Of a stretch of 64,000 bases of DNA, positions 1,168 through 63,863 are shown piece by piece. The DNA is from Ginglymostoma cirratum (lineage: Eukaryota), in assembly GCA_024137785.1 (NCBI GenBank), contig JAHRHZ010000144.1, forward strand, positions 80,299,606 to 80,363,605, written 5' to 3'. A program made the translations under genes and the position numbers. The notes below the pieces were generated by a model that did no database searches, was not told the origin of the DNA, and saw only the letters and a program-made list of their open reading frames with translations. Position 1 is the stretch's first letter; each line of letters opens with the position of its first letter.

Positions 1168-1362
1168 ATGGAGCCTTGCATGGAGTATTTCTTGGCACAA
1201 GTGCTGCAGAAAGACATGGGACGTCGGGTGCAAATTGCTCAGGAGCTGATAGAGTACATCACAGATCGCCAAAAATCCCATGATCTGGAACAGGACCAAT
1301 CTATGCTGGATCGAATGGTTGATGGCCTTGCTGCTGGTTGGGTAAACTCCAGTAACTTCAAG
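1168..1362 (+). CDS. CLASP1: CLIP-associating protein 1, first coding exon (TOG1 domain N-terminus, 65 codons)
   Basis: MEPCMEYFLAQVLQKDMGRRVQIAQELIEYITDRQKSHDLEQDQSMLDRMVDGLAAGWVNSSNFK closely matches the human CLASP1 N-terminus (MEPRMESCLAQVLQKDVGKRLQVGQELIDY...WVNSSNYK). Ends at AAG|gtatgc donor, phase 0. Confidence 0.96.
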
Positions 1363-14066: not shown

Positions 14067-14579
14067 GATAATAGGTACTGCAGATGCTGGAGAATCCGAG
14101 ATAACAAGGTGTGGAGCTGGATGAACACAGCGGGCCAAGCAGCATCCTNNNNNNNNNNNNNNNNNNNNNNNNNNNNNNNNNNNNNNNNNNNNNNNNNNNN
14201 NNNNNNNNNNNNNNNNNNNNNNNNNNNNNNNNNNNNNNNNNNNNNNNNNNNNNNNNNNNNNNNNNNNNNNNNNNNNNNNNNNNNNNNNNNNNNNNNNNNN
14301 NNNNNNNNNNNNNNNNNNNNNNNNNNNNNNNNNNNNNNNNNNNNNNNNNNNNNNNNNNNNNNNNNNNNNNNNNNNNNNNNNNNNNNNNNNNNNNNNNNNN
14401 NNNNNNNNNNNNNNNNNNNNNNNNNNNNNNNNNNNNNNNNNNNNNNNNNNNNNNNNNNNNNNNNNNNNNNNNNNNNNNNNNNNNNNNNNNNNNNNNNNNN
14501 NNNNNNNNNNNNNNNNNNNNNNNNNNNNNNNNNNNNNNNNNNNNNNNNGCTGTGTTCATCCAGCTCCACACCTTGTTAT
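14067..14579. mobile_element. Palindromic PLE-end element, family A, spanning an assembly gap
   Basis: Inverted arms on either side of 400 N (14149-14548); 13-bp direct repeat caacaattcacga at 14054-14066 and 14580-14592. Confidence 0.8.
14149..14548. other. Assembly gap (400 N)
   Basis: Run of N. Confidence 0.99.
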
Positions 14580-29369: not shown

Positions 29370-30200
29370 GACATTGGAGCAGAAATTAGGCCGTTCGGCC
29401 TATCGAGTCTGTTCCACCTTTCACGGCTGAGAAGTTCCTCAACCCCATTCTCCTGCTTTCTCCCCGTAACCCTTGATCCCCTTGATAATCAAGAACCTAT
29501 CTATCTCAGTCTTAAATGTACTCAGAAGACTGGGGAGGCCAGGTCATTGTGGCAGTGAATTCCATAGAATCACCACTCTCTGGCTGAAGAAGATTCTTCA
29601 TATCTTTGTTCTAAAAGGTCTTCCCTTTACTCTAAGGCTGTGCCCTTGGGTCCTAGTCTCTTTCCCCCCAGTGGAAGCATCTTCCCAACATCCACTGTGT
29701 CTAGGCCTTTCAGTATTCTGTAAGTTTCAATTAGATTCCCCCCTCATCCTTCTAAACTCCAATGAGTATAGTCCCAGAGTCCTCAAACATTCCTTATATG
29801 TTAAGCTTTCCATTCCTGGGACCATTCTCATGAATCACCTCTGAATTCGCTCCAGAGCCAGTACATCCTTCCTGAGATTTGGGGCCCAAAACGGCACGCA
29901 ATACTGCAAATGTGGCCTGACCAGAGCCTTTTAAAGCCTCAGTAGTACATCCCTGCTTTTATATTCATGTCCTCTCAAAATAAATGCCAGCGTTGCATTT
30001 GCTGTCCTGACTACTGACTCAACCTGCAAGTTTACCTTGAGAGAATCCTGGACTAGAACTCCCAAGTGTCTCTGCACTTCATATTTATGAATTTTCTCCC
30101 CATTTAGAAAATATTCCATGCTTTTATTCTTCTACCAAAGTGCATGACCTCACACTTTCCCACATTGTACTCCATCTGCCACTTCTTTGCCCACTCTCCT
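29370..30200 (-). mobile_element. CR1 LINE 3' fragment
   Basis: WAKKWQMEYNVGKCEVMHFG; LGVLVQDSLKVNLQVESVV..AN. Confidence 0.88.
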
Positions 30201-35717: not shown

Positions 35718-35794
35718 GGTGCCAGAGCTCAGTTGATTAAAGTGCCTGCCTGGTAAACAGGACATCCTGGGCTCAAATCTCAGTCATGCCTCCG
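35718..35794 (+). pseudogene. tRNA-Thr(AGT)-derived pseudogene
   Basis: GGTGCCAGAGCTCAGTTGATTAAAGTGCCTGCCTGGTAAACAGGACATCCTGGGCTCAAATCTCAGTCATGCCT+CCG is colinear with vertebrate tRNA-Thr-AGT (GGCGCCGTGGCTTAGTTGGTTAAAGCGCCTGTCTAGTAAACAGGAGATCCTGGGTTCGAATCCCAGCGGTGCCT). T-loop and acceptor stem are broken. Confidence 0.8.
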
Positions 35795-61181: not shown

Positions 61182-61300
61182 CAGAAAAAATAAATAGTGT
61201 TTTTCCCCAAAATTCATGAAGCTAAATTTCTGGATTGTGTATTACATGCACCACAGAACACAGTTGCTGAATCACTATTTAATTTCACAAATATTAAAGG

Positions 61301-61426
61301 TTCCAAAAATTGCACCGTAGCCTAAACAAATGTCTAGGTGATGCACATGTGTTGTAATGGTGTTAGCAGTGCTGTTCTCACCAAACGTTCATTGAACAGC
61401 AACACAACCCCAAGATAAGGACAGTT
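61301..61426 (-). ncRNA. RNU4ATAC: U4atac minor-spliceosome snRNA
   Basis: Reverse complement AACTGTCCTTATCTTGGGGTTGTGTTGCTGTTCAATGAACGTTTGGTGAGAACAGCACTGCTAACACCATTACAACACATGTGCATCACCTAGACATTTGTTTAGGCTACGGTGCAATTTTTGGAA. It has the U6atac stem II segment, a k-turn 5' stem-loop (UGCUGUUC/GAACAGCA, AAUGA..UGA), stem I CUGCUAAC, a 3' stem-loop, and the Sm site AAUUUUUGG at nt 116-124. Syntenic with the human gene. Exact 3' end uncertain by a few nt. Confidence 0.96.
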
Positions 61427-61467
61427 GATTTGAATTGGATGTACAGGGGAGGGTAGGTGAATAGTAC

Positions 61468-61486
61468 CACCTTTAACTTATGGTGA
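61468..61486 (-). promoter_or_regulatory. Proximal sequence element (PSE, SNAPc site) of U4atac
   Basis: TCACCATAAGTTAAAGGTG at -60 to -42 from the snRNA start; matches the vertebrate snRNA PSE pattern and position. Confidence 0.85.
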
Positions 61487-61613
61487 CTATTTTTCTATTT
61501 TTGTTTGGCTTCTTTGCAGATTAGTACATCTTTATTAATTACTTTTATTAGTGTTTAATGATGTTTAAAACGCAGTGAGTGTGCATTTTTGGGCAGAAAA
61601 TAGTTATTCAAAT

Positions 61614-61632
61614 TACCCACAATGCATTGTGG
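61614..61632 (+). promoter_or_regulatory. SPH element (ZNF143/Staf site) in the U4atac distal sequence element
   Basis: TACCCACAATGCATTGTGG, a near-canonical ZNF143 motif ~190-205 nt upstream of the snRNA start; imperfect octamer-like ATGCTAAC (- strand) at 61647-61654. Confidence 0.82.
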
Positions 61633-62920
61633 CACCGCCACCAGCTGTTAGCATTTAGGAATTGCAATATATTTCTAGGATTGTACTACAATGCATCAAT
61701 ATATTAAAACAACTTTAATATGTGCACTTGTTTTTGTCTTTAATATGTATGTTTGTAATAACCCTGTGATAATTTTGGCTGGCTTTTTTTAATGTCCCAT
61801 TGGTGCATCTGAATTTTACATTGATCCATTGCAAATTATTAGGGCTGATCAATCAGAACAACTGGTGGAAATCAATTCTATCAATTCAGGTTTATTTCCA
61901 AGGTACCCTTTCTCTGACGAGCTGCCTGCCCATCTGTGTATGAATCGGAGTTTCTGCCTTAATGTACGGTGGAAAAAATAGTAGTAGCTCTGCAGATCAT
62001 GATGTTAGATTTGCTAAATTAAAATTATTTTCACCCTGTTAAATACAGCCAAAAAGCCATAACATCAGAATGTGAAAAAACATTTCAGTGTTATCAGTGT
62101 GATTGGCAGATGGTCCTTTTAAACAGCTTCAGGACTTGCAAAAATTCCTGTGCAGTCAGCTTCCATTCCAGGGGCCTCAGCCCAAATTCTTTATGTATGC
62201 CGAGTGGAGAAAGACAAACAATGCTGCACATTACTGAGGAGAGTGCCCTCTATAGACATTAGCAGAATATCACTTCACATTCAGCAAATTAGCTGATTTG
62301 TTTGGTTCCAAGGATCTGCTTTTTTTAAAAAGTAAAATTAAAAAACAGTGTGCAAGCTTAACTGAAAGACAGATACTCAGGAGAGTGTGCTAAATGAAGT
62401 AGCTGGGAAGAAGCCATTTGGATTATATTGCTTTCTCTTGCCCTTGATTTTGCTCTTTTCCTTCTTCAGTCCGTGAAGGTAATACCAGAGTTTTCTTTGT
62501 GTGTATTGTAGGCACAAGTCTTGCAGTATAGCAACAGTATTTTGGACTCTTAAATCTACCCGGATATGCCATTTGTCATCTTTTATAATAGAAATAAAGT
62601 TGAAAGCACTTTTTTTCTGGTCCATGCTAAACCTTTTCCTTTAATGTTTGTTTCTGATTCATGCCCCCTTCCGTTTATTGAGAGCTCACAATTGGACTAA
62701 TGTACCCCTAAAAAATAGCCATGACCAAGCCCTTCGTTCCCACCTCCTATCTCTCTCTTCCTGCTCAAGTGCCTGTTTTCAGTACTCTTGTCTTGAAGCA
62801 TTCTGTGATAATTCTTTTAAAGTAACTAAGTGCAGATATCTTTTCATTTCATTTCTGCTCTTCTAATTCTATCTTTAGAAGCTTTGGTCTCACATGAATT
62901 TTGTAATTTTATTTTTACAG

Positions 62921-62999
62921 GTAGCTTTATTTGGTATAGAAATTTTATCAACCCTCATTTCACGTCTTCAAGATCACTTTAAAACGCATATTGGTACAG
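62921..62999 (+). CDS. CLASP1: CLASP1 second coding exon (79 nt)
   Basis: tttttacag|GTA acceptor; translates VALFGIEILSTLISRLQDHFKTHIGT (human VVLLGMDILSALVTRLQDRFKAQIGT); G|gtatgt donor, phase 1. Confidence 0.95.
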
Positions 63000-63759: not shown

Positions 63760-63863
63760 TATTGCCAAGTCTAATAGATAGACTAGGGGATGCTAAGGAT
63801 CCAGTTCGAGAACAAGATCAAATCCTCCTGTTAAAAATTATGGAGCTATCGGCTACTCCACAG
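63760..63863 (+). CDS. CLASP1: CLASP1 third coding exon (104 nt)
   Basis: tttatgcag| acceptor; phase-compatible; translates (V)LPSLIDRLGDAKDPVREQDQILLLKIMELSATPQ (human VLPSLIDRLGDAKDSVREQDQTLLLKIMDQAANPQ); CAG|gtacat donor. Confidence 0.96.

Follow-up and report, generated by a model that had tools for sequence, protein, structure and literature searches.

We consider it highly probable that the only full-length U4atac snRNA gene found in the nurse shark Ginglymostoma cirratum lies antisense in the first coding intron of CLASP1, where it likely has its own Pol II promoter and has likely been inherited from the jawed-vertebrate ancestor. The gene is very likely real, intact and the working copy. 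Throughout, the window denotes the whole 64,000-nt stretch of DNA that was analysed.

We scanned the window with cmscan. The results showed a match to U4atac (RF00618) on the minus strand at 61425-61299 that covered the complete model (1-132/132) with 101.4 bits (E 1.6e-16) against a cut-off (gathering threshold) of 53 bits, so the sub-threshold score named in the initial annotation as grounds for doubt was absent. With an extra 5' A, the gene spans 61426-61299 (128 nt), with +1 at 61426. The initial annotation had described a 126-nt minus-strand sequence holding all U4atac elements, which is the same gene under a different definition of its ends. Shark numbering equals human numbering, and the first A of the Sm site is nt 116. 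The parts of the gene, with the basis for each in brackets, are as follows.

61299..61426, minus strand: U4atac snRNA gene (Rfam RF00618 and the 5' end of a primer-joined contig; mature 3' end approximate)
61408..61424, minus strand: arm of stem II, nt 3-19, with predicted U6atac pairing (duplex energy against shuffles)
61370..61401, minus strand: 5' stem-loop with K-turn, nt 26-57, containing the U32-A51 pair (pair conservation in homologues)
61362..61368, minus strand: arm of stem I, nt 59-65, with predicted U6atac pairing (nt 1-70 co-folded with nt 11-55 of U6atac)
61312..61344, minus strand: 3' stem-loop, about nt 83-115 (Rfam alignment; fold of -13.1 kcal/mol)
61303..61311, minus strand: Sm site AATTTTTGG, nt 116-124 (Rfam match and the consensus as cited in the available part of Khatri 2023)

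The Sm site, the K-turn motif and both U6atac arms were intact. The 5' 22 nt of U4atac and this genome's U6atac (L002) gave a predicted duplex of -24.7 kcal/mol, which was stronger than all 1000 of 1000 shuffles (mean -13.7, best -23.9). Stem I appeared when the 5' parts of the two RNAs were co-folded, and the full-length U4atac/U6atac co-fold preferred another pairing there. In the 5' stem, all eight pairs were kept across five homologous sequences and seven of them showed two-sided changes; the covariation of 0.78 over these 8 pairs and 5 sequences was equalled in 0 of 500 shuffles. By established snRNA biology, Sm proteins would load onto AAUUUUUGG, the K-turn would be bound by 15.5K and PRPF31, and stems I and II would keep U6atac in an inactive state up to the activation of the minor spliceosome on introns of the U12 type.

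The candidate transcription signals flanking the gene are these.

61469..61486, minus strand: PSE TCACCATAAGTTAAAGGT, -60 to -43 (matrix from other snRNA genes)
61606..61613, plus strand: distal element, variant octamer ATTCAAAT (differs from the Oct-1 site at one position; adjoins the Staf site)
61613..61631, plus strand: Staf/ZNF143 site, distal element (1 mismatch to the published consensus; motif match, binding predicted)
61278..61292, minus strand: candidate 3' box, weak (the best fit has 3 mismatches to the consensus)

We built a PSE matrix on the promoters of six further snRNA genes in this genome (U11 and U12, the best U4 and the three best U5), leaving out the weaker U4, U5 and U12 matches, and scored the window with it. 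The element at 61486-61469, which agrees with the PSE placed at -60 by the initial annotation, ranked first of 127,962 window sites (16.5 bits, next best 13.4), and a GTCACC-type element also lay at -60 to -65 of U11, U12, U4 and U5 in this genome. The distal motifs sit at -180 to -205 and include the ZNF143 site earlier put at about -200, together with the octamer variant, which had been missed. As other near-consensus Staf candidates occur in the 64 kb (one with 1 mismatch at 29681 and five with 2 mismatches), it is position and neighbours that make this site convincing. U11 and U4 of this genome carry a like octamer/Staf pair at a similar distance, and the U4 PSE is also alike. No TATA box was found at -40 to -15 of U4atac, in contrast to U6atac L002; this absence fits transcription of U4atac by Pol II (available part of PMC5493778). 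Oct-1 and ZNF143 bound at -180 to -205 would help SNAPc onto the PSE, the lack of a TATA box would lead to Pol II recruitment, and the 3' box would direct 3' cleavage. U4atac is an independent transcription unit and is not processed out of the CLASP1 intron, because it lies on the wrong strand.

The host intron is bordered by the following CLASP1 exons.

1168..1362, plus strand: first coding exon of CLASP1, 195 nt, bounding the host intron on its 5' side (peptide identity; splice to 62921 in run X1)
62921..62999, plus strand: CLASP1 79-nt exon, 3' border of the host intron (splice sites; joint in run X1)
63760..63863, plus strand: next CLASP1 exon, 104 nt (splice joint in run X1)

All three exons are followed by GT donors, the second and third are preceded by AG acceptors, and the reading frame stays open across the joints. 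The first-exon peptide matched CLASP1a of Chiloscyllium and Hemiscyllium at 100% identity, against 98% for Carcharodon and 83% for Callorhinchus, which marks the window as carpet shark DNA. In run X1, a contig spanned the CLASP1 splice, with the first-exon end placed before 62919 and the 79-nt exon joined to the next. The U4atac +1 lies 1,495 nt upstream of the 79-nt exon, as the earlier estimate of about 1.5 kb had it, and the gene points away from this exon. The host intron is the first coding intron and measures 61,558 nt, of which at least 21-25% is repeat (a lower bound from BLAST against itself and other fetched loci); the earlier description of the rest of the intron as filled with TEs is borne out in part. 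A 400-N assembly gap lies inside the intron at 14149-14548, and the long 'ORFs' there were rejected as artefacts of it. A short piece of a high-copy repeat occupies 62204-62257 of the window, between the U4atac promoter and the 79-nt exon. The only other Rfam match in the window was a marginal tRNA-like one at 35718-35791 (29.2 bits), likely a SINE head.

The nesting of U4atac in CLASP1 is not new: it had already been traced as far as bony vertebrates, and the shark extends this by one node. Human RNU4ATAC lies antisense in CLASP1 intron 2 (accessible text of PMC12703291 and PMC13484765), in line with the human arrangement put forward by the initial annotation, and the nesting has been published for human, mouse and zebrafish clasp1a (Khatri 2023, in the part available). 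We also scanned metagenome contigs by pattern and found four U4atac genes (L030-L033). L030 contains an intact antisense U4atac (94.8 bits), 329 nt upstream of a CLASP1 exon of 79 nt. Among 13 proteins, the peptide of this exon was nearest to bony-fish CLASP1 (22/26 for Megalops, 14-17 for cartilaginous fishes); judged by this peptide, L030 is a second bony fish with the nesting. The 79-nt CLASP exon was not seen within the 1-5 kb contigs of L031-L033, and a search for CLASP2 by the first-exon peptide returned CLASP1 only.

In zebrafish, the chr9 copy nested in clasp1a intron 1 (122 nt) is barely expressed and dispensable, a 212-bp deletion of it gives no obvious phenotype, and the working rnu4atac is a chr11 copy without CLASP1 synteny (Khatri 2023, in the part available). 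The zebrafish nested copy is non-functional, so position alone is no proof of function. The claim that the arrangement had survived applies to the shark, where the copy is intact, and does not extend to zebrafish, where it has decayed and can be lost. It is conceivable, though unlikely, that the nesting of a genuine gene has been kept by selection on a tie to CLASP1, through a shared enhancer or antisense interference. In both the shark and a bony fish the gene occupies this intron on this strand and lies close to the same exon (1,495 and 329 nt away, respectively), the proximity has held although the shark intron is 61.6 kb long, and mammals are reported with the same intron. However, zebrafish that lack the nested copy through the 212-bp deletion show no obvious phenotype, the chr11 copy is non-syntenic, and passive retention of an essential single-copy gene accounts for the pattern. 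Most likely, then, the nesting persists passively, because an essential single-copy gene stays put, and a functional link to CLASP1 is unneeded.

We searched the 4.36-Gb assembly for the U4atac family and obtained one match among the best 51 of about 85,500 candidates scored, a count that covers the best-scoring candidates, such that a diverged second copy could escape the genome searches. A DNA search added one 5'-truncated copy on contig C270 (L013:1501-1600). The Rfam check proposed in the initial annotation therefore returned one full copy, and no better copy was found elsewhere among the best candidates scored in the genome searches. The C270 copy runs from nt 52 to about 23 nt beyond the 3' end with 83% identity (17 differences/100 nt), and the flanking stretch at its 3' end points to the retrocopying of a precursor that had not been trimmed. 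It was rejected as a second working gene, lacking nt 1-51 and a promoter and carrying 17 differences in 100 nt. It is also present in organisms B and C, with identical flanks in organism C, and is therefore an old fixed fragment. An 18-nt core pattern matched the genome four times (control 5) and yielded no further U4atac copy; three matches with 1 mismatch were attributed to chance, being identical at only 41-49/128 positions. The C270 copy and the window U4atac are each followed, after about 100 nt, by a repeat from one and the same family, whether by shared origin or by chance.

The family searches gave 42 U6atac matches against 1 for U4atac. Among nine U6atac copies inspected (L003-L011), three abutted LINE-like coding fragments (L004 and L006 reverse-transcriptase-like; L008), and L005, L007, L009, L010 and L011 abutted tRNA-like SINE heads, while L003 gave no clear match to either, the LINE and SINE assignments being presumptive and made from known motifs and by inspection. 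These copies resemble chimeras of U6atac with retroelements, comparable to the U6/L1 chimeras of mammals. A promoterless U5 copy (L028) had a SINE-like head in its 3' flank. Divergent U4 copies of 59-88 bits, clustered on C115 (L018, L019, L021, L022) and joined by L020, had PSE-like elements at about -60; they are possibly variant U4 genes rather than retrocopies.

We compared the shark gene with the human RNU4ATAC reference, from which it differs at G5, A51, A52, A66, U4 and U32. The human base was kept at 20 of 23 disease positions (PMC7337319, in the part available), the exceptions being 5, 51 and 66, and the shark bases at 5 and 66 are human population variants that the available supplement rows do not flag in patients. 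A51 (n.51G>A) is the commonest and most severe human disease allele and is lethal (PMC7337319), and in human RNA it impairs 15.5K binding (available part of PMC4114687). In the shark, the partner of A51 is U32, the human pair is C32-G51, and pairing is kept. L030 and L033 also have U-A at this pair, L031 and L032 have C-G, and the zebrafish chr11 copy has U32 and A51 as in the shark, read from a printed morpholino sequence. The U32/A51 swap is ordinary covariation. He et al. (2011) reportedly tested compensatory changes. Human n.32C>T is present as 16 alleles in gnomAD.

We lean, with modest confidence, towards an ancestral jawed-vertebrate U4atac that lay in the CLASP1 intron with a U32-A51 K-turn pair, n.51G>A being a one-sided return to that state and the chr11 copy a derived relocation. 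If this is true, n.32C>T in cis would neutralise n.51G>A, and the shark U4atac would be a natural compensated allele. The U32-A51 combination shows that position 51, a hotspot of human disease, requires pairing and not a G, so that variants at this position can be misjudged when conservation is scored column by column.

We then considered constraint across related sequences. In organism B, one contig spans U4atac and the exons and carries 134 substitutions in some 2,600 nt. A single listed one fell in the 128-nt gene (P about 0.009), a count that rests on the 40 differences listed out of 170 and assumes that those of the long contig are complete up to 61845. The organism B PSE had no substitution among those listed, and its Staf site had 4 substitutions in 19 nt and, by reading, still fits the consensus with 1 mismatch. 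In organism C, a 151-nt contig had four listed changes (of 5), all in the spacer between PSE and +1. The pieces from organism D include U4atac, the PSE and both exons as separate contigs. Linkage of gene and exon was seen in this genome and in organism B, the contigs of organisms C and D being too short to span it.

During template switching, a cDNA 5' primer is added at RNA 5' ends. Run X15 (organism A, taken as RNA by guess) gave a 119-nt contig consisting of 61326-61426 with 0 differences and an 18-nt loose end that matched a published cDNA 5' primer and was joined exactly at 61426 (available part of bioRxiv 10.1101/2021.09.27.461747). The contig likely marks the 5' end of an RNA at precisely the predicted +1, for one contig from one study with a guessed run type, and it speaks against the lack of expression that the initial annotation had allowed for. 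None of the runs listed is catalogued as RNA. Other candidates for expression were rejected. In X17 and X18 (organism D, RNA guessed), U4atac nt ~27-131 was embedded in unrelated flanks on both sides, and two 151-nt X1 contigs near U4atac (depth ~3) may be intron pre-mRNA or DNA. In organism D, two studies thus contained a U4atac fragment (window 61296-61400) within another, probably transcribed, sequence.

These data bear on whether the shark copy is a decaying relic at the ancestral place, with the working gene elsewhere, unassembled or missed. The zebrafish chr9 copy is a precedent, the 3' box is weak, the shark carries the A51 that is lethal in humans, and the genome searches are lower bounds. 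However, A51 is offset by U32 in a co-varying pair; no damage is seen in the Sm site, the K-turn motif or either U6atac arm; the promoter is complete; organisms B and C show constraint; the primer-joined 5' end falls at +1; and the sole other copy found lacks nt 1-51. We therefore regard a relic as very improbable and the nested copy as very likely the working gene.

Parsimony from one shark lineage and bony vertebrates suggests that the nesting dates at least to the jawed-vertebrate ancestor, the origin proposed in the initial annotation and here a lower bound on the date. That sharks and bony vertebrates each acquired the gene in this intron by a separate insertion, with no common ancestral arrangement, is barely credible. 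Copies of snRNAs are mobile (at least 41 additional U6atac matches and a U4atac fragment in this genome), but retrocopies lack promoters, none was seen upstream of the nine U6atac copies viewed, and it is very unlikely that the gene, the intron, the strand and the position near one end of a long intron would agree twice by chance. By parsimony, the intact nested U4atac is the ancestral jawed-vertebrate state and zebrafish is derived. This polarises the zebrafish case, with the nested place ancestral and the working chr11 copy derived, and moves an already known host/guest nesting back from the ancestor of bony vertebrates to that of jawed vertebrates, with no new mechanism or system.

Beyond the cited papers, we found no report of a shark U4atac, its synteny or the compensated pair, in a search that left most subscription journals outside. 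The available parts of bioRxiv 10.64898/2026.08.20.745718, PMC13063612, PMC4667643 and PMC2211285 held nothing on the subject, and the preprint supplements could mention synteny. Genome databases probably already annotate the shark U4atac.

Compared with Rfam RF00618 (clan CL00007), the shark gene is full-length and its differences are ordinary variation. U4 (RF00015), with 17 matches elsewhere in the genome and none in the window, is alike in architecture and promoter class and differs in sequence and partner. In zebrafish, the nested copy has decayed and the chr11 copy works, whereas the shark has its intact gene at the nested place. Human RNU4ATAC shares with the shark gene the RNA family, numbering, host gene, antisense orientation and single full copy. 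The shark 79-nt exon is presumably the counterpart of human CLASP1 exon 3, and the distance from gene to exon is 1.5 kb in the shark against about 0.6 kb in human. Human RNU4ATAC is occupied by SNAPc, POU2F1 and ZNF143 (available part of PMC3499247), so that its PSE, octamer and ZNF143 sites are demonstrated by ChIP, and the same motif set is present in the shark as a sequence match.
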